A stretch of 54,249 nt of DNA, filler included, from Catajapyx aquilonaris (Eukaryota): assembly GCA_000934665.2 (NCBI GenBank). It is 2 parts of 2 records of this genome, joined end to end, with 100 filler letters (N's around TTAATTAATTAA, not from the genome) between each part and the next. Parts side by side here need not be neighbours in the genome. Positions count along the whole stretch, not along the records: positions 27,153 to 54,249 come from JYFJ02005122.1; 1 more part is not named here. One strand, 5' to 3'. The notes beneath the pieces were generated by a model. The model was given only the letters and a program-made list of their open reading frames with translations, was not told the origin of the DNA and ran no database searches. The position numbers and the translations under genes are program-made. Numbering within the stretch: the first letter of the stretch is position 1; each line of letters opens with the position of its first letter. This document shows positions 24,438-46,200 of this stretch, in pieces.

Positions 24438-26899
24438 TCAGAATTTGCCTTTTGTACTCCCAGTTTGTGAGGATTCCATATCACTCTTTGTGAGAAGAGT
24501 GTGCGGATGGTCACGACCCAACACTTTTTCCTGCCTTTCCAAAACGTCCTTGTATGTCCGCAATGCTTCCTCGTGATTTCCTTGGTTATCTAACACTCGG
24601 GCCATGTTATGCTTTGTGTTAAGAGTGCCCGGATGGTCACGACCCAACACTTTTTCCTGCTTTTCCAAAACCTCCCTGTATCCCCGAAAGGCTTCCTCGT
24701 AATTCCCTTGGGTATGTAACGCTAGGGCCATGTTATGCTTTGTGCTAAGTGTTTCCAGATGGTCATGACCCAACACTTTTTCTTGCTTATCTAAAACCTC
24801 TCTGTATGCCCGCAAGGCTTCGTCATAATTTCCTTGATTCCACAGCTCCCCTGCTATCTTCATCTTTGTGTTTAGAGTGTTGGGATGGTCATGACCCAAC
24901 ACTTTTTCCTGCCTTTCCAAAACGTCCTTGTATGTCCGCAATGCTTCCTCGTGATTTCCTTGGTTATCTAACACTAGGGCCATGTTATGCTTTGTGCTAA
25001 GTGTTTCCGGATGGTCACGACCCAACACTTTTTCCTCTTTTCCAAAACGTCCCTGTATGCCCGCAAGGCTTCCTCGTAATTTCCTTGGTTATCTAACACT
25101 ATGGCCATGTTACTCTTTGTCCCAATAGTGTCCGGATGGTCATGACCCAACACTTTTTCCCTCTTATCCACAACTTCCCTAAATGCCCGCAAGGCTTCGC
25201 CATATTTTCCTTGAATCCGTAGCACCCCTGCTATGTTCATCTTTGTGTTAAGAGTGCCCGGATGGTCATGGCCCAACACCTTTTCCTGCTTATTCAAAAC
25301 CTCCCTGAATAACCGCAAGGCTTCCTCGTAATTTCCTTGATTCCGTAGCACCACTGCTACGTTATTCTTTGTGGTAAGAGTGTTGGGATGGTCATGACCC
25401 AACACTTTTTCCCTCTTATCCAAAACGTCCCTGTATGCCCGCAAGGCTTCCTCGTAATTTCCTTGGTTATCTAACACTATGGCCACGTTACTCTTTGTGT
25501 TAAGAGTCTCCGGATGGTCATGACCCAACACTTTTTCCCTCTTATCCACAACTTCCCTATATGCCCGCAAGGCTTCGCCATATTTTCCTTGAATCCGTAG
25601 CACACCTGCTATGTTCATCTTTGTCCTAAGAGTGTCCGGATGGTCATGACCCAACACTTTTTCCTGCTTATCCAACACCTCCTTGTATGCCCGCAAGGCT
25701 TCCTCGTAATTTCCTTGATTCCGTAGCACCACTGCTACGTTCATCTTTGTGGTAAGAGTGTCCGGATGGTCATGACCCAACACTTTTTCCTGCTTATCCA
25801 AAACGTACTTGCATGTCCGCAAGGCTTCCTCGTAGTTTCCTTTGTTATCTAACACTAGGGCCATGTTACTCTTTGTGCTAAGAGTGTCCGGATGGTCATG
25901 ACCCAACACTTTTTCCCTCCTATGCAAAACCTCCTCGTATGCCCGCAAGGCTTCGTCGTAATTTCCTTGTGTGCACAGCACCGCTGCTACGTTCATCTTT
26001 GTGTTAAGAGTGTTGGGATGGTCATGACCCAACACTTTTTCCTGCTTATCCAAAACCCCCATGCATGCCCGCAAGCCTTCGTCATAATTTCCTTGTTTGC
26101 ACAGCACACCTGCTACGTTCATCTTTGTGGTAAGAGTATCCGGATGGTCATGACCCAACACTTTTTCCTGCTTATCCAAAACCTGCCTGTATGCCCACAA
26201 GGCTTCGTCGTAATTTCCTTGATACCCTAGCACCCCTGCTATGTTCATCTTTGTGGTAAGAGTATCCGGATGGTCATAACCGAACACTTTTTCCTGCTTA
26301 TTCAAAACCTCCCTGTATGCTCGCAAGGCATCCTCGTAACTTCCTTGGTTACGTAACACTACGGCCATGTTATGCTTTGTGCTAAGAGTGTCCGGATGGT
26401 CATGGCCCAACACTTTTTCTTGCTTTTCCAAAACGTCCTTGTATGCCCGCAAGGCTTCGTCGTAATTTCCTTGTTTCCGTAACACCCCTGCCATGTTCAT
26501 CTTTGTGCTAAGAGTATCTGGATGGTCATGACCCATCACTTTTTCCTGCTTATCCAAAACCTCTCTGTAAACCCACAAGGCTTTGTCGTGCTCTCCTTGG
26601 TCATCTAACACGTTGGCCATGCCCTTCTTTGTCCCAAGAGTGTCCGGATGGTCACGACCCAACACCTTTTCTTGCTTTTCCAAAACGTCCTTGTATTCCC
26701 GCAAGGCCTCGTCGTAATTTCCTTGGTTCAATAGCACCGCTGCTACGTTATGCTTTGTGCTAAGAGTGTCCGGATGTTCATGACCCGACACCTCTTCCTG
26801 CATTACCGATACAAGCCTGTAAACTGTTGAAGCCTCATTCCAATTGCCTGCTTCACGGAAGGCGTGAGCAGAATTGAGTATTTCCTTCCAGCCCCCCAT
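24438..26899 (-). CDS. Intronless 42-aa TPR-repeat protein (kinesin-light-chain/nephrocystin-3-like TPR_12 type), 18 full repeats plus one partial, 1-nt frameshift near 25033
   Basis: ORFs 24974-26899 and 24438-25028 carry the same LGHDHPDTLxTKxNxAxVLxxQGNYEEALRAYxxVLDKQEKV unit (126-nt period). One C is missing at ...aacactttttcctctttt compared with other units. Confidence 0.85.
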
Positions 26900-27052
26900 C
26901 CCATGATATTTCCCAGAGGAGTCTGTCCCCTTTTCATCCCCACCTCCTTCCCGTTATGGTGACCCGGCAGGCAAGCCATCCCCTGCCGGCGTCACCTCAC
27001 GGGCAAATGTCCCCTGACTCCATCGTCCTCCAAACCGATCCTGTCCCTTGCT

Positions 27053-27152
27053 NNNNNNNNNNNNNNNNNNNNNNNNNNNNNNNNNNNNNNNNNNNNTTAA
27101 TTAATTAANNNNNNNNNNNNNNNNNNNNNNNNNNNNNNNNNNNNNNNNNNNN
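27053..27152. other. Artificial gap/contig spacer (Ns around TTAATTAATTAA, stops in all six frames)
   Basis: 100-nt block of N with a central TTAATTAATTAA. Confidence 0.9.
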
Positions 27153-27429
27153 AAGGGTTCAATTGGATGTGGGTTTCACATATATATTTTTTTTTTAAAT
27201 CGAAGACCATGACTGGGCACCCTCCGTCTGGATTGAAATGGAACCAGCCCACAGATCCAGCATGAGATCTTTAGGAGATCTGTATAGGAGATTATAGTAA
27301 ACCTCTAGGTATGCCCATATGTGCCTTCTGGCTAATTATAAATTTTGTTGTACCACCCGTCTTTGCCACACCACACATCATGAATATCAATGTGCACAAT
27401 TCCCCTAATTTTTTTAAATATTTTTTAAA

Positions 27430-27642
27430 ATAATGGATACCCCGTGATAGGCCCCTTCGGCCTCCTAGGGGATCATCTTTTGAATAACCGACTTTAATCA
27501 TTTGCCTGTAGTGTGATGGATTTTGATAGTGGGAGGAAACGGGAGAACCCCGAGAAAACCCACGCGAACACGGAGAGAACCCATCGAAACTCTATCCACA
27601 TAAGTATCCTCCGTCCGACCCGGGGATCGAACTCGGGACCTT
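27430..27642 (-). mobile_element. tRNA-derived SINE (V-SINE-like core), 5'-truncated copy
   Basis: Reverse complement of 35130-35335; B-box GAGTTCGATCCC. Confidence 0.75.
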
Positions 27643-27970
27643 AGCAATTCCCCTCATTTTAAAACTGTGTCATATCTGCATTGTGTCCAAACACTAAAAT
27701 ACATACCCAAGTGAGTCCTCTTGGATATTTGTATAACAGCAGTGACCAAAAATACTATTATGGTCTGGTGCACTGAATTTTGGTAACTTGGGTTTTTACC
27801 ATGGCGCGGACTGAATGTTTTGGTGCCAAGAGTGTAAGGACACTCATTTTATGCCAACATTATTTTTATCAAAGTTGTTATTATTATTTGCTCTCAGATG
27901 TGGCCTTAAGAAGTTAGATTTTACAATTGTTGATGGAATGCTGAAGAGTTAAATGCGCTTCTGTTTTCAG

Positions 27971-30900
27971 CTATTTTATGACTGCCCTTAGTCCAGCATT
28001 CTTTGCTGGTCTGACTCATCGTGATGTGATCTATATTCCTCTGCCCATGTACCACACTGCTGGTGGGATTGTTGGAATAGGTCCAGTGCTTCTCATGGGA
28101 CTCACTGGAGCCATGTGTGCCAAATTTTCAGTATCTCGTTTCTGGACCGATTGCATTAAATATGAGTGCACGGTAAGCAGGGCATCAATGCCAGTGAAAA
28201 TTTCTGTGCAGGAGCTCTTGTAGTATATTATGAATTTAATTCAGCTAAATTACGCTTTTATGCCTATTTGTCAAATCTGGTGCTTCTTTAGAGTTTAGAT
28301 TGTGTCCAAAAAGTCCTCTGCATTTACATATTTTGTTTTTTTGTGCCCAAAAATGCTGCCTAGAGCTGCCATTCTCAAAGTTCAGTACATAGCTTCTGCA
28401 GATTTGCCTGAAACATGTTTGGTGGGGTGTACATCACAATCACAATCAATCATGGCATTTTCCAATGATAGGGTTACCAGCGATGACCAGGTACATTCAC
28501 CTGGTCATCTTGCTGGGGTGTACTGTACATATGGAGCATATTACGATATTTTCTCATATAGTTGAGTTAACTTATGTTATTGACAAGAATTTTTAGGGTG
28601 TGTATGAGGTAGGAAGGAAGGAAGGACATCGTAGCTGTATAGATACTCACTTCTTGGTATGACAAAAAACTTCGTTTTTTGTCTGTTACCTGTCAGTGTA
28701 TTATGTGGCTGTAAGTCTACAGAAAGGATCAGGTGGGATCACCTGATCTGAAACCAGGTTCCACTGCAAGGAAGATTAAATTACGTTATTTTTCCAATTT
28801 AAAACTGGTGAACAATCCAGAACGTCAGTGTAAAATCAGACTGAATTTGTGGTGTTCATAAGTACCTGCAGGCCAGCAGAAACTGTAATGTTTCAAACAA
28901 TGGTTTCCAACCTTTTACCAACTGCGACCCCCTAATCATGTTTCCATAAATGTGCGACCCCCCCCCCCCCTTCATTCCCTCCCCCAACCCCTTCTACAAC
29001 TGCCCACTTCCCAGAAAACATACACTCTGTACGGCTGCAAAAACGGTTCAATTGACACAGAAATTGAAAAATAATAATAATTTTGAACCAAGGCTCACGA
29101 CCCCCCAGTTGGAAACCACTATTTTAAACAGTACATTTTTGTCAAATCCACTTGAGATGTGGAGAGAGTTACGGATTTTATCAGCAACTGGAAAGTACTG
29201 AATTAATTTGGCCAAGTAACTATCAGATTCCCATTGCTTCTCATGGTTTCCAAAGATTTCTCCCTGAATTGACACTGTTTCGACAAATTTTAAAGGATGC
29301 TCATTTAGTTTATGGAAAGTAGTGAGATGGTAGGAATGTATGATTTGTTAATCGTTTTTAGTATCTTTTGATATGGAAGCTGCAGTGATGCCTGAAGATT
29401 CTGTAGTAATGTTAGTGAGTCAGTTTTTTCCTGAACAACAGGCAGTGTTTCAAATCAATTTTGTCCAAAACCAAAGAAATTTAATTGAATGGCTTGGAAA
29501 GGTGGTACGGAGCATTTTGGTCTTTAATCAGATCATGCAATCCCTACACTTGCCCGATATTCATGGCAGTTACGGCCCGCCATAGCTACACCATGAGTAA
29601 GGAGAGGGTCATCATTAATTGCATTATTTGTGCCAATTGTTGTGTGAAACTGAAAATATATAACTGAATGCCTTTCTTCAGAAGGAAGTGTGTCACACGG
29701 TTTTGTTTTCAGGTAACACTTGGCATTAATAATCCAGTTGACCCTTGCCCTACTTGATGAGGAGCCAGGGCAGCTCATGCTACTGGGCAGGTAGGATTAT
29801 TCCCTGATCCATTCAATGGCCAAAATGCTGTACATCACTTTTCTACGTCCCTGTAATTATTATTCATTATAAAAAGTCTGACAGGTGCAAGGTAAATTTT
29901 GTGTTGCATGGCTGCAATAATTTTGCTTTTTTGAAGGACCTTTGCACATAGCTTGGTGTAAAAATATGGTTTCACTGCAGCTTCAAAATACTTTAATTTC
30001 TGAGAAGCAGCATCCAACATGTAGGTTTGGCATCAGACGTAACTACATAGCAAAGAGGGCTCCATTTCAGCTACTTGTTTGCTGCCTTGGGTCCTGGGAT
30101 AACTTTTGGGCTAGGCCTTGACGATGTTCTCTATATGCCTCTGCCCCTGTACCACACTGCTGGTGGGGTTATTGGATTAGGACCTGTGCTTCTATCAGGG
30201 GTCACCGGGGTCATGCGTCACAAATTCTCCGTCACTCATTTCTGGACCGATTGTATTAAGTATGAGTGCACGGTAAGCAAGGCATCAACTGATCCAAAAG
30301 TAAAGCTACCTTGGTTTCCCAAAGGACAAAGTGCGCACTGTACTACTTGTTATAAATAACAAGCATTGCTATGTTAATTATTTTTGCCTGTTATGCATCC
30401 TGCCATGTTTTGTGTGCTAATTCTCATGTTGTTTGCTTCATATAAGTGAATGGAGAACTAATCATGTCCATGTTAATGTTGACGTTGGCATGACCAGGGC
30501 ATGACTGCTGTTCGTTAATGTGGAAATGCATCTTGCAGCTTAGCTATTTGTGAACGAATGTGTTTTGCAGAGCATGTAACCGTTGATTTAAAAAAAAATT
30601 AATTTCTGATTTAAATCACTGCATTTCAGAGATTATGTGAGTGGTATTTGCATTATATAAAATGAAATATTATGTATTTCATGGGTAACAAATTTTGCTA
30701 AATGATTTGAAACTTTGTAATTATGTTGCCAAGTGCACATATGAGTAATATATACACTGACAAGGTACAGTATGTATTAATATTGTGTGTACTGGCCAAC
30801 CCTGCCTAAAATAGTGCAGGGACTAAATTGTTCAATCAGACCCAAATCTTGCATAGTGGAGAGTATAAATCCTTGGCGAAAAGTATAAGCTCCAAAACTG

Positions 30901-33231
30901 GCTTCATAATGAAATGCTGTTGCAAAGTGGTTGCATGATGCTTCAACCTGGAAAACCAGTGCATGAGAATTGCAAAGTCCTAAACACCGGCCAAGTAAAT
31001 ATTTTGAAAGAGCAAAGTTTTCACCAAGGATTACCATCTTCCTACCTATAAAAAACCTAGAATAGATGGCTGATATGAATGAGGGATTGATGTGGGATAG
31101 GGAACTGCAGAAGGGGAAGCATGGTTGTGATTAGTTGGTCATGTGTTCCGGCAGCTTCGTCTATTATACGGCTGGGATCCACTACTTCTTTGGTCTGAAC
31201 CATTCAGAAGTGATCTATTCCCCCCTGCCGCTGTATCATACAGCGGGGGGCATGCTGGGAGCAGGACAAGTGCTTCTTTACGGCTGCACTGCAGCCCTGC
31301 GCGCCAAATTCTCCGCCTCTAACTACTGGAAGGATGCTGCTGCCTATCAATGCACGGTACGCATGCCAGCTTCCTCCTCACATATCCTTCTCTTCCCTCC
31401 TTGTGACAGACATGGATATACCCGAGGCAAGTACCTCTTGAGAGCCTCACATTACAAAAGATGGTTATTTTCTTCCTCAGAAATACTCCAGTAAGGAGAT
31501 GATTTTATTGAGCTGCTGTAAATGGAGTAATGCCAGAGTGACATTCACTAATATATGAAGAGGCTCTCTCTTCTTACCTTTGCATTTTCCTGACATGAAG
31601 TTGTAGCATGAAGTGTAGTCTGGTATGGATTAGGTAGCAAGCTACTTGACATTTCACCATGCACATGCATTTAGGACAAGTGATTAATTTTATATGAATA
31701 ACACAGATTTAACACTTGTAGATTTACCACAGATAGACATTAATGAGGAATGAATTTTTTTTACATGCATTGAACTAAAATATAATTTTATAGATGGATA
31801 TCATCAGGAGTTGATTTTCCTGAAGTGTCATTAGGAATATAATGCTTGATGTGTGTGTTGTGTACTTGCTCATTTTTAAACGTATGTTGTGGTAATCAAC
31901 CTGGAATATTTGCTTGCATTTCTATGTCTGTAACTGCTTTTGCTACGCATTTTTTAGTTAGAGCAAGCATTGACTGTGGGAATAGGACATCTGTTGGGAT
32001 TTATATCTGGCATCTTAACTGTGATGATGACGATAATAATAGTGATAATAATAACATTTTTGTGTTGATATCATGCATTATGCAAGCATATAATGAAACT
32101 GGATTTGGGATGAGTGTGGATTTATGGTAATTTTTTTTAAATGTCTTTTTGTTCACTCACTCAAATAGTAAATTTTGAGGGAATATAATTTGCATGACAT
32201 TCATGCATGTGCTCAATATTAGCACTGTTTCATTGATTAACACCTAAAGTCACAATTTGATTGTTTAAAAATTTACGTGTTGCTATCCTTACTTGATAAG
32301 GTACCATAATATTTTTTCTGGGTGTGCCACCAACATTTAGGCTGCCCAGTACATCGGAGAGTTGTGCCGATACCTGCTCTCTGCGCCACCCCGTCCAGAG
32401 GACACCCAACATAAGGTGCGCCTTATGTTTGGAAATGGACTCCGCCCACAGATCTGGACACAATTCCAGGAGAGATTCAACATTCCCAGGATTTGTGAAT
32501 TCTACGGATCCACTGAAGGAAATGCCAACATTGGTATGACACTGTGCATGTGAATGAGATATTGCATGTTTGGACGTCACAAGTCCACAAGTGTGTTTCA
32601 GAATTGAGCTCACTCCTGTATAGGAGGGAATTTTATGAACTCTCCTGAGTCTATATGGTAATCCTGTACCCAAATGTACACTATGTATGATCCAGGTGGA
32701 GGAATGAAAGTGCATTCCCACGTGAAACTCCCCTAATTTACAGTCATGGATCAACGTGACATTTCCACCAATATGAATGCGATTCCAACTCTGAAACACT
32801 TGGTTTAGCTGAAGTACTTTTCTCTTTTAAGTGGTCATCATAATTCAGCAGCTAATTTTATGCTTTCCTGTCTTCCACAGTGAATATGGAGAATAAGGTC
32901 GGCGCTGTTGGATTCTGTTCTAGAATCCTTCCCTTTGCATATCCTGTGACTTTGATTAAACTAGACGAAACTGGAGAACCAGTCAGAGATAAGAAAGGAC
33001 TGTGCATTAGATGCAAACCAGGTAAGTAATTGGCAAAGGTGCAACTCATGTTGGAGAAAAAGGACAATGTTTTAAGCATAGATGTTATTGCAGGGGAACC
33101 TGGTGAATTTGTGGGTAAGATAGTAGCCAGTCATCCCCTTAGAGCATTCCATGGATATGCAGATAAGACTGCCACTGAGAAGAAAATTGTCAAAGATGTC
33201 TGGAGCAAAGGAGATTTAGCCTTCCGATCAG
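27971..33231 (+). CDS. Fatp: Long-chain fatty acid transport protein / very-long-chain acyl-CoA synthetase (SLC27/FATP), internal part. Alternative exons 27971-28172, 30071-30272, 31155-31356; then exons 32341-32533, 32881-33021, 33094-33231
   Basis: Motifs [84 protein letters not shown]; all junctions are GT-AG and phase-consistent. The 5' exons and the 3' exons are not visible. Confidence 0.92.
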
Positions 33232-33569
33232 GTGAGTTCATTTAATGCATTTTACTGATATACTTTTAACTGCGAACTGTGCTGTAGCTTGCTATTGTCT
33301 CTTAAAAATTGTCTATCAAGAGCTAATAACTGAGAGCATGTTACAAGTCCTTTGCCGTGACTGAACCTCTGATAGACCAGGGAAGTGTTGAGATTAGTTT
33401 CCCTCTGGCGCGACAAGACCGAACCAAGAAGGGAACCTTTGTCCCTCCTACAGAGGCGTGGCTTCTTCAGGGGGTCAACTCTTTCTGTTCCTCATTTATC
33501 ACCTTGGGTTGGGGTGGGTGCGAAGAAAGGCCCCAGGGCTCCTGGACTTTGACCCCCNGGGGTCAGATA

Positions 33570-33990
33570 AGTCAGACCCTTCCTAATCTACTACCCTCGG
33601 GCTTATCGCAGGTACGGAATGAACCTTTTAAAATAATCCGCAGAATTTTTTAAGGACGCACCTTTTTGCATTTTTGACGGCAAATATGAATTCTAAGGTG
33701 TCGAAAACCTATCTTTTCATACTCGATTCGTACCAGGCATGTCACAAACAGGCCCATGGAAACCCATGTGTATATTAAGAAAACTTGTTGAAGTTATCAT
33801 GCTAGATCTACTTTTTGACATGCCTGGTATGAATCAGGTATGAAGATATAGGTTTTCGACACCTTAGAATTCATATTTGCTGTCAAAAGTGCAAAAAGGT
33901 GCGTCTTTAAAAAAGTAGCCGGATTAGTTTAGAAAGGCCACTACCCCCTCCTGCTATAAGCCCAAGGAGGGTAGATTAGGAATAAGGGTC
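33570..33990. mobile_element. Palindromic MITE
   Basis: gacgcacctttttgca...ctaaggtgtcgaaaacctatctt (33655-33715) mirrors 33843-33905. Confidence 0.7.
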
Positions 33991-34418
33991 NCCCCCCCCC
34001 CCCCCCCCCCACGGACCTTCTAGTCTGAAGAGGAGCCCATGTGTCCGATTCTGGGCCTCTGAAGAAACTGGTCTCTGATTGGCCACTGGCCAAATGGGCT
34101 GGACCTTCCTCCAAGGAGGGGGGGCTGCCTCAGGACTCGTTCATGATGACGTACTCCTGATTTTTCCCATGTATCCCTCAAGGGTTAACTGAGCTGCCAT
34201 GATATGGCTGAGCCCGTCTGGGGAGTCGCCAGTTCCGCTGAGAGGATGAGGAAGCCTGCTATACGGCAGGGATAGGGCACTCGGAGGCTCTCAGTTATTA
34301 GCTCTTGATCACACTATTGTTCACTGATATGTAACACAAAATGGAAAAAATATCAGGTGTCTATGTACACATAGTGAGCCTAATCATGTGGTTGTTTCAG
34401 CTCATGACAATGACAATA

Positions 34419-34945
34419 CAGGGTGTTTACGAGCTAACTTTACCAACTTCTAGGGGTAATAGAGGGGACCAAGACAAACATATTTCACATAGGAACCCGT
34501 GTCCGGAAACGCCATCTAGAGGGGGTTCACAGACAAGGAACGGGTGCGCTCAGACGCGTCAGGCGGGCGGCATTAGTGAGCAGACCGTTTAGTTTCTAGG
34601 TGGCGGGCGGATTGTACACAACTCAGCAATTCGCCATAACCTGGCAACAACAGAGTTGTTGTTTATTATCTGCGCACTACCTAGCATGCTGACTTTAGTT
34701 GTTAGGTGGTTCTGTTGTTGCCAGGTTATTGAGAATTGCGAAGTTGTGTACAATCCGCGCGCCACCTAGCAACTAAACGCTCCGACCGCTAATGCCCCCC
34801 GCCTGACGCGTCTGAGCGCACCCGTTCCTCGTCTATGAACCCCCTCTAGATGGTGTTTCCGGACACGGGTTCCTCTGTGAAATATGTTTGTCTTGGTCCC
34901 CTCTATTACCCCTGGAAGTTTGTAAATTAGCTCGTAAACACCCTG
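34419..34945. mobile_element. Tc1/mariner-type palindromic MITE
   Basis: TA|CAGGGTGTTTACGAGCTAA ... TTAGCTCGTAAACACCCTG|TA; the arms pair almost to the centre. Confidence 0.85.
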
Positions 34946-35079
34946 TATATTAAACTTAAGTATGAACATTGTGCCAATTGGAGACCCTGCATAATTTGTT
35001 AACAGGTGCATCTTACCATTTATTCAGTGGTTAAAGCAGGATGTGAATGTGATGTTGTCTTGAAATAATGTGCTGGCTC

Positions 35080-35337
35080 ACGGGTGACGCGGTGGCAGAG
35101 TGGTTAGCGCCACAGCCTTCCACCTCCAAGGTCCTGAGTTAGATCCCTGGGTCGCGCAGAGGATGCTTATGTGGATAGAGTTTCGATGGGTTCTCTCCGT
35201 GTTCGCGTGGGTTTTCTCGGGGTTCTCCCGTTTCCTCCCGCAATCGAAATCCATCACACGCAGGCAATGATTAAAGTCGGTTCACGAAAAGAAGATCCCC
35301 TAAGAGGTCCAAGGCCTATCACGGGGTATCCATTATT
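35080..35337 (+). mobile_element. Full-length tRNA-derived SINE with V-SINE-like central domain
   Basis: A box TGGCAGAGTGG; core GTTCTCTCCGTGTTCGCGTGGGTTTTCTCGGGGTTCTCCCGTTTCCTCCC; (ATT)n tail; 15-bp TSD ATAATGTGCTGGCTC at 35065-35079 and 35338-35352. Confidence 0.85.
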
Positions 35338-36441
35338 ATAATGTGCTGGCTCTATGTAAATAGAGCGACCACCTTTAACCCCCAGAGCCCGGCAAGGCTT
35401 TTGAATTTTTTAAAAGCTTTTTAGTAAATTCTGTATGGCCCCAAAACAATGTTACAATAAAGATTATATTATAGGAAAGTTATACATCAATGCTTAGCTT
35501 AGACTTGGGGCTTTTCGAAAAAATAAAAATAATGCTAATTTGATGGTCATGTGACCATGGCGGCCATTTTGAATGTATAATTTTGTGTTAACGGATGGTA
35601 ATCAATATAAACTCATATTTCTGAAGTTAATCATAAAACTCAGCCATATTTTTCTCAGTGATTGTCTGTAGGCCTAATTTACAAATGCAATCAAGAAATG
35701 CAGTTGAATCAGGATGTAACACCCTTGGCTGTAACAGACTCTCGGTTATAACAGACTCGAAGTGTGGTCCTGGCAAACTTCCATAAGACCCTGTATAGTT
35801 TTTCTCCTGATATAACATACTCATTTTCACCTCACCTCGGGTGTTACAGACCCTTTCATGGCCCCTCAGTTGGGAAATATTCTGCTTTTGATTACTCAGC
35901 CTCCTTTCCCATGCACGGAAAGCATAATGGAGATGGGGTGATTTTTCCACTTGTCCCTGATCTAACACTTGCAGAAAATGTCAAAATCATTATTTTGTGG
36001 TACATCTGGCAAGAACGAGACGTCAGAAGAAAATGAGGTTTTTTTGTTTTTTTTTGGTCCTCCTTGATTTACAGATGAGCTCATTTTGCATGTTTGTGGA
36101 TAGTTTCATTAATCAGCATGCATTTGACTATTAGTGCATTATAAGCATATGAAAGCAGAAACTTTTGTTTTATTGCAAAAGTGGCGATTTGGCTATAACA
36201 TAAGTGGTTATAACAAACTGATTTCCTTGGTCCATTGAAGTCTGTTATATTTGAATTCTACTCTATAACAAATGTCTAGGAAGCCAGAAAACCAGAGCCT
36301 GACACATGCTGCCCTCTGTTGTTACCAAAAGTAACCATCCCTACATTTCATCCAGAAGCACATGGTGTTGATCTAAAAATAGAAGAGTCACAAAGCCCAT
36401 ATATATACTGGGTGAAGCGAAACTCGCGCCCAATCGCCAGG

Positions 36442-36643
36442 TATAGTCAAAGGACGTCCAAGAATGCACGTCTGGAACCTCCCACTTTTCCAGTTTCCAT
36501 GGAGATTTCCTCACACAACAATAGGAGTAAACAGTGCTATTTTGTTGACACTGTTTACTCCTATTGTTGTGTGAGGGCATCTCCATGGAAACTGGAAAAG
36601 TGGGAGGTTCCAGACGTGCATTCTTGGATGTCCTTTGACTATA
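36442..36643. mobile_element. About 200-bp palindromic MITE
   Basis: TATAGTCAAAGGACGTCCAAGAATGCACGTCTGG ... CCAGACGTGCATTCTTGGATGTCCTTTGACTATA. Confidence 0.8.
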
Positions 36644-37377
36644 GACTGATAGTATTCGCAAAACTAATATAGGGACGTCCAGTTAGTTTTGGGCGCAGGT
36701 GCGTAGTTAATGCGTACACAGGGCCGGCGGCGTTAGGTGAGATGGCGCCCTGTGCCGTTTGACATATATTACGCCCCCCCCCCCCGAACGTAGGAATTAA
36801 AATATTCAGCAATAAGGCAGAAAATTTCGGGTGGGGGCCCATTTCATAAATCATAAGCACTAGGCGAGCAAGCGGTAAATGGCGGGGAGGAAGCCCGCCG
36901 CAGGCGCAAATTTTTTGGGGGTGCAAGGTCATACGAGCTTAGGTGAATGTGGGAGATTTGAATGAGTGTATATTTGATGTAATTGGTAGCACTCCCCCCC
37001 AATTATGAATTAGTAATTTATAACGCTATTTCCGGCTATTTCAAACATTTCGTGGGGGGTGGGGGGGGGGCGACCCGCATGGGCCCCGTGCCCCCCTGCA
37101 CACGCCACTAAGGATAATTCACTGCCACGGGAAAGCGGGTATAGTACTCCCGTCACTACTTTGACTCCCTTTTCCGATGAGGAATTGCTTACTATTATGA
37201 AGCATTTAAGCGTGGAGCTAGAGGTTCGTCAGTATCGTCACAAGTAGTTATTCTTAATTTTTAATAATAAAATAAAATATGTTAAACTTTTGTGGGTGCC
37301 CCCTGGCAGGGGGGCCAGGGGCGCTCGTACCCTGCGCCCCCCTATTAATCCGGCACTGCCTCCGACTGCTTTTTTAC

Positions 37378-37552
37378 TTTTTGGAAGGGGGCGCTTTTTA
37401 GAAGGGGCTCCTTTTTGGAAGGGGGCGCTTTTTAGAAGGGGGCGCCTTTTTGGAAGGGGCGCCTTTTTGGAAGGGGGCGCCTTTTTGGAAGGGGGCGCTT
37501 TTTAGAAGGGGGCGCCTTTTTGGAAGGGGGCGCATTTTTGGAAGGGGGCGCT
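37378..37552 (+). repeat. Minisatellite, about 9 copies of 18-19-bp GAAGGGGGCGCYTTTTTG
   Basis: Directly visible tandem array. Confidence 0.9.
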
Positions 37553-38897
37553 ATGACGACATGTTTTTGAAGCAGATGAAACGCTGAAAGAATGTGGTGA
37601 GCATTGTCAATTGGAAGCCATTGGAAGATGCTGAGTAAGTGGCTCCCTTGTGGCCTTGTGTGCGCCATTAAGGAAGAAAAATTTAACGACATTTTTAATT
37701 TTTTATATTATTTGGAAAGGGCTCATCACGCGTCTTTCGCGCCCCACACGCATCTGCGCCCTGTGCGGTAGCACTGGTCGCACACCCCTAGCGCCGGCCC
37801 TTGCGTACAGCGCCTTTAACCCTTTGAGGGCTACGAGCCTCATATTAGGTCCTTCGGGTTTTTGAACTGGCGTGCTAGAGTTTAGACACAAATGCTCAAA
37901 CTGCTCCTACCACCTCATGGAAGGGAGGTCAACTACCATGGCATATGCTAATCAGTTTTTCCGCCTCCAAGCATGAGCTGAACATATACCCCCTCCCGCG
38001 GTGTCAGAACAGGGTAGCCAATAAGTCTGGACTCTTATGAATTTCTCATAGTACAGTGTTTCAGTATTATTTTGTAACCATAGCAACAATTTTATAGTGA
38101 CTTTAAAATTTTAATACATTTAATTACATTAAAGTTAATTGCACTTAAAAAAAAATCTGAAACACCCTGTAGATGAATTTTTTTGGCATTTTACATTCAA
38201 CAGGACCACCACGAGTTAAAATTATAAATATTGGAGCATATTGTTTTTCATTAATATCACTCCTACTACAAATTTTCATTGAGAAAAGAAAAAAAAAAAA
38301 CAGCCGAGAAAAACAGGCGTCAAAGGTTCCCAAACTTTTTGAGTCGCGGAGCACTTTTCAGGAGAGATATTCAGGATGGAGCACTAACATCATCGATCCG
38401 CGTAGGCAGAACAATTTTCGGGGGGGAGGGGGGGGGGCAGCGCCATATTAGGAAATCGGAAGGTGAGGGGCACTGCAGGCGAGAAAATTTAGGGTTCAAG
38501 GTCACACAAGCTACTGAGAGATTAGAATGGGTATAACTTATTGAAGAATTCCTTTTTTCCCCCAACCTCTTCGCAGAGCACTTGGACAAGCTTCGCGGAG
38601 CACAGTTTGGGAACCTCAGGGTTAAAGTGTAGAGGGCCTGATGGTAAAATATAAAGTAAAAACGACCAAGTGCACGGGTGTCGTACCCGGATTCTTACTT
38701 TGACGGGATTTGATCACCTATTGCACATGGACATTGTGTTATGGACCCAAGGCTGGATTGTTCAAGGGGCTCGAGCTGGCTTTTGCTTCTTTATAGCAAG
38801 TGGAATGGATGTGATGTCACGAAACTTTGACGGCGCCGTACACATTAACTATGCATCGGCACCCAAAACTAATTGTACATCCCTATATTAGTTTTAC

Positions 38898-39244
38898 GCG
38901 GGGAGATGAAGTGGCGTCGCGGTAACGTGTGCGCCCACGGATATGAAGGTCCCGGGTTCAAACCCCAACCGGGGTTCCCACCTTTATCCGTGCAGAGTTG
39001 GGCCATCTCTGGCTTCATTTCGGGTGGCAATTTCCGACAGACTAAGCCACCCGGGGGAGTTCACAAAATGACCGTTAGAGCCATTGCACTTGCACTTTGC
39101 ACATCCCCTCCCACCTACTCTTGGAGTACACTAATAAGATCCATCTTAACACGCTCCAAAATAAATCCCAATGGTGGTAAACCACCCCCCCTAAGGAGTA
39201 GATAACTCCCCCCGTGGGATAATGAGAAAAAATAATGAGAAAAA
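38898..39244 (+). mobile_element. tRNA-derived SINE (separate family)
   Basis: A-box-like TGGCGTCGCGG; B box GGTTCAAACCC; repeated ATAATGAGAAAAA tail; 13-bp TSD ATATTAGTTTTAC at 38885-38897 and 39245-39257. Confidence 0.7.
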
Positions 39245-39482
39245 ATATTAGTTTTACTAGTAGGCTACTATAAGTCTACCTGGCGATTAGGCGTGAGTTT
39301 CCCTTCACCCTGTATATATAGGCTCGCTGGTCTCTGAGGGTTAAAAGTTCAAAAGGAGTGGAGGTAAATTGGCTTATTGGTGCAGATCATTGTTCTGAAA
39401 AACTAACTGTGGGAGCTAAGTGTATTGCACAATCTATAATGCTACATTTCTTGCCAGCATGTGTCATGTATAGTGTCTTGTT

Positions 39483-39779
39483 ACCGGAGCAGGTTGGCAT
39501 AGTGGATAAGGCATCCGACCGCTAATCGGGAGGTCCTGGGATCAAATTCCGGAGCCGGTAACTCTGACCGTGGTTTTCTGTGGTTTCCCACGGTCCTTCC
39601 AGGAAAATTCCGGGGTTGCTTCCGTAATTAATAGGCCACAGCCGCTTCCTTCCGTCCCTATGCTATCCCAAAAAGCGCAGTAAAATGAGAGCAAAGAGTT
39701 CCAGGCAAAACAAAACTTCCCCCCTAAAGAGCCGATGGCTGATAACGGGGTATGAATTATTATATATAATAATTATTAT
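39483..39779 (+). mobile_element. tRNA-derived SINE (core resembles arthropod Talua/Lm1-type SINEs)
   Basis: A box TGGCATAGTGG; core GGTTTTCTGTGGTTTCCC...TAGGCCACAGCCGCTTCCTTCC; flanking direct repeat TATAGTGTCTTGTT. Confidence 0.75.
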
Positions 39780-40209
39780 TATAGTGTCTTGTTTTTGCTA
39801 CATGTCATGACCTTGCTAGAGCTTGATGCTGGCATGCTGCATTGTATTGTCTAATCACTGTACTGAGGCACAGCTGCAGACATTTGTGCCATGGTAATCA
39901 TAACAGTTGGCATTACTGAATGTTATTAAATGCCGAGGTATTTCTTGGGGAAATTGGGTAATTCACCATTGTACACGTAGACATTATGGAAGTGAGAGTG
40001 TATAGGTTTGATGTGTTGTTAGTGTTTCACTTAGCATTTATATTCATGCAACAAATGCCACCATGTAGTTAAACCATGTACAAATTCAGCACTGAAATGG
40101 CATTCATACCAAGAACCACATGTTCTTCCCATCAGGCGAGCAGACGTCCCACTGTTGCCACAGGTACCGGCAACACAGAAGGGTATACCGTACAAATTGA
40201 ACATTGCAG

Positions 40210-43200
40210 AGAGACCAAGGAGGTCAAGGAGATGAAGATGAGGAGCCCAAGTTTGAAGATGTGCTGGAATTGGTCGGTGGAAAGGGAATCTGGAACTGGG
40301 CCCTGTTTTTGCTGGCATCTTTCTCTGGCTTTTGCTCCTCTCTACACAATTTGGGGTATGCCTTCCTAGCCTTCAGGGTACCATACTGGTGCCATGTGGT
40401 TATGTTGGACCAGTATGACTTGCTGGAGCAGGAAATTTTGCTCAACTACACAATACCATGGCAAGTATTGATATTAGATATAAGCACTGTTGTTGTGTGT
40501 GAGGGTGTGATGCAAAAAAAGAAGTGTAACAAGATCCCAGATCCTGACACAGAACAACACTCAAATCCTCCATTTGGTTACAGGGAGCATAAAGATGACA
40601 AATGGCAGAGGAGTGAATGTTTCATGTACGACCGACATTATGGCAACAACACCGAATTTATATTGGAGGCTGCGGAAGAACAGTCATCAGCGAGAATATA
40701 CCTGACTGAGACTGGGCATGATTTGTCCTCTTTGCAGTTGCCATCTACAATCGCATGTGATACTTGGTATTTCAACACCACCGAGTTTAGCTCCACTATC
40801 GTAACAGAGGTATTTTATTGAGCGTCTGTCTTCCTGCATACAGTATATAATAACCAAATTGTCATTTTGCAGTGGTCACTAGTGTGTGGTCGAGAATGGC
40901 TGGCGTCAACGAGCCAAGCAGTGTATATGCTTGGTATTCTGCTAGGCTCCCCGACATTTGGCTGGGCATCTGACAAATGGGGGCGTCGCAAGAGTGTGCT
41001 AGCTGCTGTCATTCTCTATGCTGCCACTGGACTTGCCACTGCTGGTGCTCCTTGGTTGTGGGCACTATTTGTTCTCAGACTGGTTCTGGGATTCGCCACA
41101 CCGGGAGTATATGCAGGTACTTTTCATATGAAATCAATACCCATGTTTAGCTTTACCCCATTAGAGGGAACAGAGCCCTTTTAGGGGAGTGGATTACCAC
41201 CATTTTTCTTAGAAATTTCTTCGCATTTTTTCTCTCCGGTGCAGGGGTCAGGATAGGGATTTGTGAGGGGGGGATATGGTTGCAAGTGCGATGTCTCAAA
41301 TTGGGGGTCGTGTGCAGTCCCCCAGGGGGTCAAGCTACACGACACCCCCCTAGGTGTGGGTCAGAAATCCCCCACCAACACCGCACCTCCTCATGGATGG
41401 GACAAGGATAGGAAAGGAAGGAAGTGGCTGTGGCCTATTATTTAGGAAGCAACCCTCCTGGGTGGACCGTGGGAAAGGGAAACCACAGAAAACCACGGTT
41501 AGGATTGCCGGCCCCGGGGCTCGAACCCAGGACCTCCCGATTAGCAGTCGAACACCTTATCAACTCCACCAAACTGCTTCGGTAAATCAATACCCATGTG
41601 ATGTATGTCTAAAAAGAAATCACTATTAAATCTGCCTGTAAGAGTCTGAATTCAACTAAAACCTACCAAATTTGTGTGGGCCCAGCAGGACAAATTCAAT
41701 GCATTTTGTCATGTACTTGTACAATTGACACCGGATATAACAGCCTCAGCTATTTGCGAGACCCATGGCCTGTAGAGGTGCTGAAGGCGAATCCAAGATG
41801 TCCAACGGATGGGGTACTCGAGCAGGCAGGGCATGAGCTTGGCATGAGGCAGGGAGAACAGTAGACAAGGCTGAGCACACGCTATGTGGGCAGGGAGAGG
41901 GGAGGGGTACACATATGGCCAGAGTGGGCAGGTGGGGCAGGCCCCAGGCCAAGGCACATGAGGTAGCTGGTACCTATGCAAATGGCTGGGAGAGCAGCGC
42001 GATGCGACACGGGGCCCAGCCGGCGTGGCTGTAGGGGAGTGGGTCCAGACGTGCAGGGAGACATTTGGGAATTAATTGCGACCAAACTAGAAGTGGGAGG
42101 AGGGTGACAGTGCTCCCGTCGTTGACAGGAGATTTCGATTGTTCAGACAACGTCCACAAATAAAATAAATACCCACAGGTTATTTTACAAGGGAATTAAA
42201 TAGGGAATATCTCTGCAAAAAGTGGGACTTAGTTTCTGGACGAGAGAATCTGGCAAGCTGTAATCGTATCGTTCCCGGGGTGCAGGTTGACCTTTGGGAA
42301 TTAATTGCATCCCAACTAGAGATCGAAGGAGGGTGACAATGCTGCCATCGTCGAGAGGCGATTTCAACTGTCCTGACAACGTTCAATTTAATATTACATA
42401 CCGTGCGGGTAATTTACGGGGGAATTGAATAGCGAATATCTCGGCAAAAACCACTGGACAAGAGATGGCTGGTTGACTGTAACCGTCTGGGTCCAGAATG
42501 CAGAGTGACCTTTGGGAATTATTTACGCCCAAACGAGGATTTGGAAAAGGGTGACAGTGTTCCCAGAGGAGATTTCGATTGTCCAGACGATATCCGCAAG
42601 TAAAATTCCTACAAGTAATTCTCAGGGGGAATTAAATAGCGAATTTCTGGGCAAAACGTGGGGCTTTTTCTCAGGATGACGCAACGACTACTACTTATGG
42701 ACGTCGAGACGTCCACAAGTAGCAGTCCCGCTCATAAAGAATGGTATGACTCTATGGACGAAATGTTCATCCACAATGCCCAGCAGTTTTCCCTACCTTA
42801 TTTCGACATGACCCTAAGGAAAACCTTTTCCTGACCTTTGGTGACTCGGGTGACCCATCCCGAATTCTAAATAAAAATTTTAATTATCAAAATGTTCAAC
42901 CAGGTATAGTGCGGAAAACTAAACAATGATCTGACGTCATGAAGGTTTTCATGGAAATACCCTCACAGAACTATATGAGTAAACAGTGTCAACAAAAAGC
43001 AACAATGTAAGAAATGATGACGTGAGATCATCGTTTGGTTTTCCGCACTATACAATGCTCATGTAGATTTGATGTGAATTTTCCCCCTAAAATTTTCCTA
43101 CTTTGCCTTGTTTTTTCTTATCTCTTTTACTTTATTTTGATTCCCCTTTCCCAGACTTCCTTGCGGCATGCTGGCGACCCAGGGGTTGGGAACAGGATAA

Positions 43201-46200
43201 ACATTTCGTCCATATCGAGTCGTTCCGTTCTTTATGAGGGTAGGCTACTGATACATAAGAACTTCGAGTTACATCCCACCACGAAACATAATTTGTTACT
43301 TGTCAGTTGTCACCACTTTACTCCCTTTTTCATTCCCGTGCATGGCAGGACTCTGACAGTCAATCCCTTGTGTCCACCATTACTCAGTTCCGTGCCCGCT
43401 GCCAGGTGTCAGCCACTTCTATGGGTCTTGCCAATAAAGATTTTCAGTTACAGCATATTCGAAAGGCTGGTTCCAGCATCCTATGGCCCTATGTATTAGG
43501 CTATAACAGACCTCGGTTATAGCGGACTGATTTCCGCAGTCCCTTGAAATCTATCTGGAGACTACAGTAAAACAGACACCTGCTTAGCAAGGAAAATGTT
43601 TGTAGAATTATGCAATTCCAAAGGAGGCAGAGGTTTTCTCATAGTCCGGGTGCTAAGGGGTTAAACTTTGCATTTTGTGACAAAAGTATGAAACTCGGTA
43701 CACTTGTTCTTTGGACACTTCTGATCATATCTGGACGTGGAGCCACGATGACCCACCCCGGTGGTGGTCCATTTCGCAGGGTTTCCATAACTATAAGATG
43801 CAGCATCCTTTTAGGACCTTGTATTCGGTGACAAAAACATGAAACTCGCCACAATTGGTCTTTGCACACTTCCAAACATATCTGGACGTGGGGTGACGAT
43901 GACCCACCCCGAGGGAGGGCACTATTGCGGCGTTGCCGTATATAGTCGGGGCAACCTAGGAATACTCCATATGAATAGGGAGCTTGCATTCGGTGACAAA
44001 GCCATAAAACTTGGTACGTAAGTTCTTTGGACACTTCCGAACATATCTGGACGTGCAGCCACGATGACCCACCGAATGCAAGCTCCTTATTTAAATATAA
44101 ACACATGTTGCACATTCTGTTAGATATGGCAACCCTGCGAAAGTGCCCTCCCTCGGGGTGGGTCATCGTGGCTCCACGTCCAGATATGTTCGGAAGTGTC
44201 CAAAGAACTAGCGTACCAAGTTTTATGGCTTTGTCACCAAATGCAAGCTCCCTATCAAAATATAAACGCATGTTGCACAGTCTGTCAGATATGGCAACGC
44301 CTCTATAGTGCCCTCCATCGGGGTGGGTCATTGTGGCTCCACCTCCAGATATGTTCAGAAGTGTCCAAAGAACAATTCTACCAAGTTTCACGTCTTTGTC
44401 ACCAAATGCAAGCTCCCTATCAAAATATAAACGCGTGTTGCACAGTCTGTTAGATTTGGCAACACCATGATAGTGCCCTCCATCGGGGTGGGTCATCGTG
44501 TCCCCAGGTCCAGATATGTTCGGAAGTGTGCAAAGAACTATATTGTACCGAGTTTCACGTCTTTGTCACCGAATGAAAGCTCCCTATTCACATAGTCGAC
44601 TTAGAGAGCCCATTAGATCTGGCAACCCTGCGAGTGACCCCCAGCGGGGTCATCCATAGTGGCCTCACTTCCAGACATGTTCAGTAGTGTCCAAAGACCA
44701 ATTGGGGCGTGTTTCATGTTTTATCAGTGTTTTATCACCGAATGCAAGGCCCTTATTCATGTAAAGGTGTGCAACGCATGTTCGATTTGGCAACTCCGCG
44801 ATAGTGACCCCTGGCGAGGCCACCAGGGGTCACCCACCGTGACCCCACGTCCAGATATGTTGAGATGTGTTCAAAGAACTACCGTACCGAGTTCCACGTT
44901 TTTATCACCGAATGCAAGCTCCCAATTCACATGATCTTCGGAGAGATGTATGTTTGGTCTGTTAGATCTGGTTACCCTGCAAGTGGCCCACAGCGGGGTC
45001 AGTCATCATGGCCCCACATCCAGACATGTTCAGAAGTGTCCAAAGACCAATTGTGGCGAGTTTCATGTTTTTGTCACCGAATACAAGGTCCTAAAAGGAT
45101 GCTGCATCTGGTAGTTATGGAAACCCTGCGAAATGGACCACCACCGGGGTGGGTCATCATGGCTCCACGTCCAGATATGATCAGAAGTGTCCAAAGAACA
45201 AGTGTACCGAGTTTCATACTTTTGTCACAAAATGCAAAGTTTGGGTCAAATTTGTCCCTTAGCACCTGGACTATCATATTTTTATGCAAAGAAGATGGTG
45301 ATGTTCTGTGTTTGCTGAATACTAAATCAGGCATTTTCACACGTTTTAGGTGCCTTTGTTCTGGCAGTGGAAGTGACGGCCCCTAGCAGAAGAGCCTTGG
45401 TTGGGGTACTTTTCTGCATGCCTTTTGCTGCTGGCTACATGATGCTGCCCCTTATGGCCTACTTTGTGCGACACTGGAGGTACTTGAACCTCCTCCTTGC
45501 TGCACCATCCTTATTGCTCTTCATCTACTTTCCCCTCCTGCCTGAGTCACCTCGGTGGCTCCTGCAGAAAGACCGCATAGCTGAAGCTCAGCAGGTGCTT
45601 CAAACTGCAGCCAAATGGAACCAGAGACCACTCCCTGATCAGGAGACCTTTCGACACCTTCTCACTGCAGTGGCCAAGAATGTCAGTTTCTGCAATTTCT
45701 GTTCAAGTTACTCTCCTGCTTCTAACATTGAACATTAAGGGCCGAATTCAGAGAGGTTGGTTAACATAAACTTGCATGGTTAACCCTGTAACGGTGACAT
45801 ACAAAATGTTCGTCTTCCGGTGACATGGGCACTTTTTGTGACCAAGGTACATTTTTTGTTATACCATGGGATATATAGCATATTTGGGCCTCATTCCTGA
45901 GACAATCTTGGTTTGATTTCTTGTGTGATGAGGGGTATTTCATTTACATTTTTTGAGCATATAGTACAATCAGAAAAAAATCAATTGTGCATCGATGTGC
46001 AGTTGAGGCCAAATTGTGCCAGAGTCACCAAGGCTGGACTGGTTTCTTTTTGAGATGCTGCTATCAGTTCAAACCCTCAGGGATTGTTTTCCTAATTTTT
46101 GAAGTCTCAGGAAGGCTGGCTTCATTTTACAATAACTTGAGACTTCCGAGTGTTCATGAATCACGACTGATAAGCTCAGGTCCCCCTCCGGTAAGCCCGC

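Follow-up and report, generated by a model that had tools for sequence, protein, structure and literature searches.

A described counterpart of the locus reported here is found in vertebrates. In ACSL6 and ACSL1, the choice between two mutually exclusive exons exchanges the fatty-acid gate domain of the encoded enzyme (Soupene and Kuypers 2006, PMC1543647). Here, we describe a 54,249-nucleotide stretch of the Catajapyx aquilonaris genome (GenBank assembly GCA_000934665.2), referred to throughout as the window, in which three homologous exons of 202 nt each (A, B and C) lie in tandem ahead of three further exons (D, E and F) of a FATP/SLC27-type gene. Our reading is that A, B and C form a mutually exclusive alternative exon cluster in this arthropod gene, and we put the probability of this at roughly 75%.

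The vertebrate pair and the window have much in common: ACSL6 and ACSL1 likewise belong to the acyl-CoA synthetase superfamily, and the choice of exon swaps a gate motif near the P-loop. They differ in that ACSL is a subfamily distinct from FATP, the phylum is another one and the exon duplications are not homologous, so the likeness is convergent. The ACSL genes have two variants that are mainly one aromatic residue apart, whereas the window has three copies that are 48-64% identical.

In arthropods, mutually exclusive arrays occur in Dscam, MRP, myosin heavy chain and 14-3-3. The window resembles Dscam-type arrays in having tandem homologous exons, one of which would be chosen per mRNA. The control of multi-exon arrays of this kind in arthropods is attributed to competing RNA structures (PMC6071210, PMC9013439). 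Unlike arrays with docking and selector sites, the window has no evident docking/selector pairing, and the frame shift described below is the only enforcement of exclusivity that can be demonstrated.

Exon anatomy, gate motif and reading frame

Exon A lies at 27971-28172, exon B at 30071-30272 and exon C at 31155-31356, all on the plus strand. Each has 202 nt, is entered in intron phase 2 and left in phase 0, and provides 67 codons without a stop after one leading base. The intron sequence ahead of each ends in cag, and the bases that come next are gtaagc for A and B and gtacgc for C. The coordinates, length, phase, AG/GT sites and open frame are exactly those given in the original prediction, and the translations are as it quoted them. 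Its description of the exons as divergent versions of one segment also holds, with shared profile positions (see below) and pairwise identities of 73% in nucleotides and 64% in amino acids for A and B, 60% and 51% for A and C, and 58% and 48% for B and C.

A repeat search placed the three exons in a single direct-repeat family of three members, at intervals of 2100 and 1084 nt. The likeness fades ~20 nt or less beyond the exons, ungapped identity being 20-48% in flanks of 50-100 nt, and the flanking introns can no longer be aligned, whereas the exons are still 58-73% identical. The first 20 intron bases after A (28173-28192) and after B (30273-30292) are 75% identical (gtaagca.ggcatcaa..), the remainder of the intron being unalignable; this short stretch could be a conserved splicing element or merely the edge of the duplication. 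No fourth copy was found in the window with tblastn searches using 43 variant peptides, for which the best match elsewhere had an E-value of 0.038. A further copy beyond the N-filled gap upstream of the cluster is possible.

Downstream of the trio, on the same strand, lie three constitutive exons. Exon D (32341-32533, 193 nt) is supported by its match to the Pfam AMP-binding profile (PF00501), tblastn and spliced contigs; it occurs once, in agreement with the earlier claim that the downstream exons are single. Exon E (32881-33021, 141 nt) was defined by spliced joints, sequence boundaries and tblastn, and exon F (33094-33231, 138 nt), the last FATP exon in the window, by tblastn, spliced contigs and sequence boundaries.

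The matches of A, B, C and D to PF00501 have E-values of 1.5e-5 to 3e-4 and occupy consecutive profile positions: A, B and C cover 198/200/201-258, and exon D covers 266-325. The scores of A (20.8 bits) and B (24.5 bits) are no lower than that of C (20.1 bits); no single exon reaches the 29.9 bits required of a whole protein, which is to be expected with 64-67 residues. All three copies correspond to residues 242-306 of human FATP2 (PDB 20zn / 9vzp), the best PDB match (E 3.3e-11), followed by oxalyl-CoA synthetase (E 0.01). The top named matches to exon D are all arthropod long-chain fatty acid transport proteins 1/4, at up to 83% identity, with malacostracan FATPs ranking first and the value of 83% reached by those of Armadillidium and Meganyctiphanes. 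A word-index protein search with exon A, restricted to longer proteins, returned 39 candidates, none of them significant. Judged from these profile and similarity matches, the gene is an arthropod FATP/SLC27-type very-long-chain acyl-CoA synthetase of the ANL superfamily.

In the ACSL work, the gate motif D-x5-LPL-x-H is common to long- and very-long-chain enzymes, and the form x-LPL-Y-H marks the very-long-chain (FATP) group (PMC1543647). All three copies carry the very-long-chain form, D-x5-x-LPL-Y-H, with two substitutions: one copy has E in place of D, and A has M in place of the second L, a residue also present at this position in variants of relatives. The core thus reads PLPMYH in A and PLPLYH in B and C, which bears out the LPLYH motif that had been reported for the swapped segment.

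The reading frame was tested with the split codon of the upstream exon left unspecified. With A, B or C as the sole copy ahead of D+E+F, the frame stays open for 225 codons. All four multi-copy orders (A+B, A+C, B+C and A+B+C), as well as the order with no copy, meet a stop, and the reading frame therefore enforces inclusion of exactly one copy. The original prediction had stated that including two or three copies shifts the frame. This is correct for two; three copies add 606 nt and restore the downstream frame count, yet a stop is met 49 nt into B.

In the mechanism that we propose, each mature mRNA would contain one 202-nt copy between the P-loop exon, which lies outside the window, and exon D. 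The copies would supply alternative versions of 67 residues, comprising the gate motif and the strand and helix behind it, and one gene would yield several isoenzymes with shared ATP-binding and C-terminal parts and different gate regions. Exclusivity would be enforced at least by the reading frame, two, three or no copies leading to a premature stop and presumably to nonsense-mediated decay. The choice of copy would probably be regulated by tissue or stage. Because of the position of the gate motif, the variants may differ in fatty-acid substrate preference.

Isoform sets in relatives and the age of the array

A profile of the three copies gave 2004 matches among 1.84 billion representative proteins. 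The top match was a 604-residue model from Armadillidium vulgare, P0001 (RXG72415.1), which contains three consecutive copies of the segment and also lacks the start of the next exon. Its three tandem copies point to a genomic array in Armadillidium too; the protein itself is an annotation error, in which the gene predictor read straight through the exon array.

Several relatives have sets of NCBI isoform models for the orthologous gene, named 'long-chain fatty acid transport protein 1/4-like', namely Palaemon carinicauda (X1-X4), Macrobrachium nipponense (X1-X4), M. rosenbergii (X1-X5), Panulirus ornatus (X1-X8), Oratosquilla oratoria (X1-X10), Pollicipes pollicipes (X1/X2), Periplaneta americana (X1-X4) and Bacillus rossius (X1/X2). 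From these we extracted the stretch between the P-loop and ..QYIGE. There are three variants each in Palaemon carinicauda, M. nipponense and Panulirus ornatus, four in Oratosquilla oratoria, and two each in M. rosenbergii, Pollicipes pollicipes, Periplaneta americana and Bacillus rossius. In the rows examined, Cephus, Eurosta, Aedes, Argiope, Uloborus and Tetranychus have one variant each, and Schistocerca has four near-identical versions from six species.

The family, the position and the 67-residue length of the swapped segment are those found in the window, with the exception of one Oratosquilla variant of 68 residues. The variable segments follow the same residues (K-H-S-R in crustaceans) and end before ..QYIGE. 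Among 16 equal-length isoform pairs from eight species, 15 have all of their 28-41 differences within a single span of 62-66 residues; the remaining pair differs at the N-terminus alone. This arrangement had been put forward as unfamiliar in FATP genes, a view that did not survive the comparison: at least eight species already show it in their public NCBI isoform models. In the window, a cluster that public annotation already contains (shrimps, lobsters, barnacle, cockroach) gains a further member, and the arrangement is not new. Our literature search turned up no publication that describes mutually exclusive exons in FATP/SLC27. The terms 'SLC27' and 'Fatp' are absent from the main texts of PMC9741552, PMC5740500 and PMC3303723, whose supplementary gene lists might hold a case.

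A maximum-likelihood tree was built from 40 variant segments over 67 columns, leaving out the near-duplicates Schistocerca_2, Schistocerca_3, Panulirus_4 and copy 2 of Armadillidium P0001. Three groups emerged: an alpha clade (support 95/96) of decapods, stomatopod and isopod; a beta core (98/83) of the decapod, stomatopod and isopod orders together with Penaeus; and a gamma clade (87/88) of decapods, stomatopod, krill and barnacle, in which exon C of the window is also placed, next to the third variant of the relatives with isoform sets. Membership of C in the gamma clade is favoured, and an old origin of the array in crustaceans is well supported.

Exons A and B are sisters (99/97) outside the alpha clade and the beta core. 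The pair stands weakly beside beta in the tree (88/88), its best BLAST matches are alpha variants (60%), and an approximately unbiased (AU) test did not reject a grouping of A and B with alpha (p 0.31). Compared with the three variant clades of the relatives, A and B are by their tree position the products of a younger duplication specific to this lineage.

Two variants of one species were not found among RNA-derived (Logan) proteins, where there was one per species (alpha in Panulirus, beta in Penaeus). A candidate second variant, P0312 of the Penaeus cluster, was rejected: it differs along its whole length and so is probably from another species.

A broader scenario can be offered tentatively, and we regard it as possible but somewhat doubtful as a whole. 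Vertebrate ACSL1/6 and pancrustacean FATP, which are unrelated branches within the superfamily, would have independently evolved gate-swapping mutually exclusive exons, with an array at least as old as the malacostracan-barnacle ancestor, and perhaps as the crustacean-insect one, that was expanded here by the A/B duplication. One gene would then produce at least three isoenzymes, chosen by tissue and differing in their preference for chain length or unsaturation. Apart from this scenario, the finding indicates that arthropod FATP genes diversify the fatty-acid gate through exon choice rather than gene duplication, in parallel with vertebrate ACSL1/6. The array also offers naturally occurring gate variants of an enzyme that is identical elsewhere, a convenient means of testing the determinants of FATP substrate preference. 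For annotation, such arrays are a hazard, in that predictors can string the copies together, as in Armadillidium P0001, or choose one arbitrarily.

Transcripts, selection and competing explanations

Transcript evidence came from X1, a single public run whose kind is not on record and which is kept as contigs; these were placed on 27153-42000. Copy C is used in mRNA: X1 contains a joint from C to D (31355>32340, GT..AG) at a depth of 48.5. Further GT..AG joints, 32532>32880 and 33018>33091 (depth 64), link D to E and E to F. A spliced contig of 1018 nt at depth 64 matches D, E and F perfectly and extends for another 541 nt that are found nowhere in 27153-42000. It follows that the locus is transcribed and that its spliced mRNA is longer, with 3' exons that are missing from the assembly or far away in it. 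No joint between copies (A to B, A to C or B to C) is among the 10 joints listed in X1. Exon A and most of the A-B intron are without X1 cover, which is uninformative either way.

X1 also bears on the possibility that the trio is an artefact of assembly, with exons of separate paralogs or alleles collapsed or mis-joined. Such an error might be suspected where the assembly is gapped nearby and the stretch from A to B is almost without independent X1 cover. However, exons A to F all fall within 27153-33557, a stretch free of N, and X1 contigs of depth 6-8 with 0-1 mismatches (30100-30405, 30497-31183, 31428-31728 and 31777-32369) together extend to exons B, C and D. These contigs support the assembly there independently, if only in part. 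At the DNA level the copies differ by 27-42%, much more than alleles would, and the same array logic is seen in relatives. We regard an artefact as highly improbable, the least credible of the explanations considered.

Selection on the copies was estimated from the ratio of nonsynonymous to synonymous divergence (dN/dS). Nei-Gojobori values of dN/dS are 0.38-0.45, with dS at 0.64 between A and B and 1.1-1.2 against C. In a three-taxon codon model, a single omega of 0.40 was obtained, and omega = 1 was rejected (likelihood-ratio statistic 12.8, p 3.5e-4); on the C branch alone it was marginally rejected (p 0.049). When A and B were compared with 39 arthropod variants, they retained nine of nine invariant columns and, of the 15 columns with a conservation of >=90%, kept 14, to within one column of the expressed copy C. 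Both A/B departures at the latter columns are to residues present in other variants.

The mutually exclusive cluster put forward in the original prediction is thus backed by the equal-length isoforms in eight arthropod species, by the logic of the reading frame and by the splicing of C to D. It seems to us quite probable that two or more of the three copies serve as alternatives, and A and B, like C, would be used in mRNA.

A number of observations weigh against this reading. Junctions from each copy to position 32341 had been suggested as a check, and that from C to D is present, but the 10 joints listed in X1 include none that leads from A or B to D. The sole listed X1 contig on B (30100-30405, depth ~6) is unspliced across the donor site and has an intron-like depth. 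With 67 codons, omega = 1 was not rejected on the A branch (p 0.30) or the B branch (p 0.23) taken singly, and residues private to a copy relative to the 39 arthropod variants number 11 in A and 9 in B against 4 in C. The isoforms of the relatives are automatic NCBI models; compared with them, the Catajapyx window has C alone seen in RNA. An AU test did not reject a single clade of A, B and C (p 0.19), and orthology of C to the gamma variants is accordingly favoured, short of proof. In 27153-32400 there are 43 inverted repeats; most of the 25 longest are rich in A and T, and not one of these 25 turns up next to every exon as docking/selector pairing would have it; a docking site upstream of the cluster could not show, because the N-filled gap cuts that intron. 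Finally, the 54 kb contain no exon for the N-terminal ~245 residues (P-loop included) or the C-terminal ~170 residues.

The transcript, single-branch and private-residue results would suit an explanation in which C alone works and A and B are pseudo-exons, that is, unspliced and drifting leftovers of tandem duplication. What speaks against this is that A and B keep AG/GT sites, exact length, phase and an open frame at a mutual dS of 0.64, and that they retain the invariant and near-invariant columns of the family as noted above. The introns have lost all alignable similarity and the exons have not, and relatives have two to four variants at the same position. We consider this explanation unlikely, and alternative use of the copies remains our preferred reading.

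The missing ends of the gene raise a different question, namely whether the window holds a dead partial FATP copy, a middle fragment whose array has no product. With four full-length FATPs as queries and E-values up to 200, tblastn over the 54 kb gave noise alone outside 27936-33266, and neither the P-loop exon (..SGTTG.PK) nor the C-terminal domain PF13193 was found anywhere in the window. In line with a fragment, no 5' or 3' FATP exon is present, a TPR gene lies just upstream on the other strand and an MFS transporter gene lies downstream. These neighbours notwithstanding, the spliced X1 contig over D-F continues for 541 nt beyond exon F, and there are gaps, seen as N runs or single Ns, at 27053-27152, 33558 and 33991. 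Because that contig runs past exon F, the P-loop exon and the PF13193 domain probably exist outside the assembled stretch. We judge a dead fragment to be very unlikely.

Surroundings of the cluster

Upstream of exon A, the N-filled gap at 27053-27152 consists of two N runs (27053-27096 and 27109-27152), and the constitutive upstream exon lies outside the window. On the far side of this gap, and stopping right at it, is the TPR gene (24438-26953, minus strand), made up of a 659-residue open reading frame (ORF) and an adjoining 216-residue ORF with ~14 TPR_12/TPR_10 repeats of the nephrocystin-3 / kinesin-light-chain type. Downstream of exon F, at 40201-41184 on the plus strand, two adjoining ORFs form an MFS / sugar-transporter-type (SLC22-like) gene, of which the second ORF alone matches Pfam (MFS_1, E 1.2e-11). 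It lies between exon F and the missing 3' exons of FATP, wherever these are. Further along, 43639-45386 is a block of repeated units that retain long open frames on the minus strand (308 residues) as well as on the plus strand (192 residues) and have no Pfam match.

Interspersed repeats are also present around the cluster. One occurs in opposite orientations at 27498-27644 (plus) and 35078-35281 (minus), with a long identical peptide stretch in the two translations; X1 has an opposite-strand joint between them (27512>35265), and the depth in the 27153-27647 bin is 223. Over related repeat copies in 38538-40022 and 41508-42000, X1 bin means rise to ~6,250, and the copies at 39510-39683 (plus) and 41350-41556 (minus) have similar translations. 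These high-depth repeats near 38538-42000 probably represent an abundant, transcribed short interspersed element.

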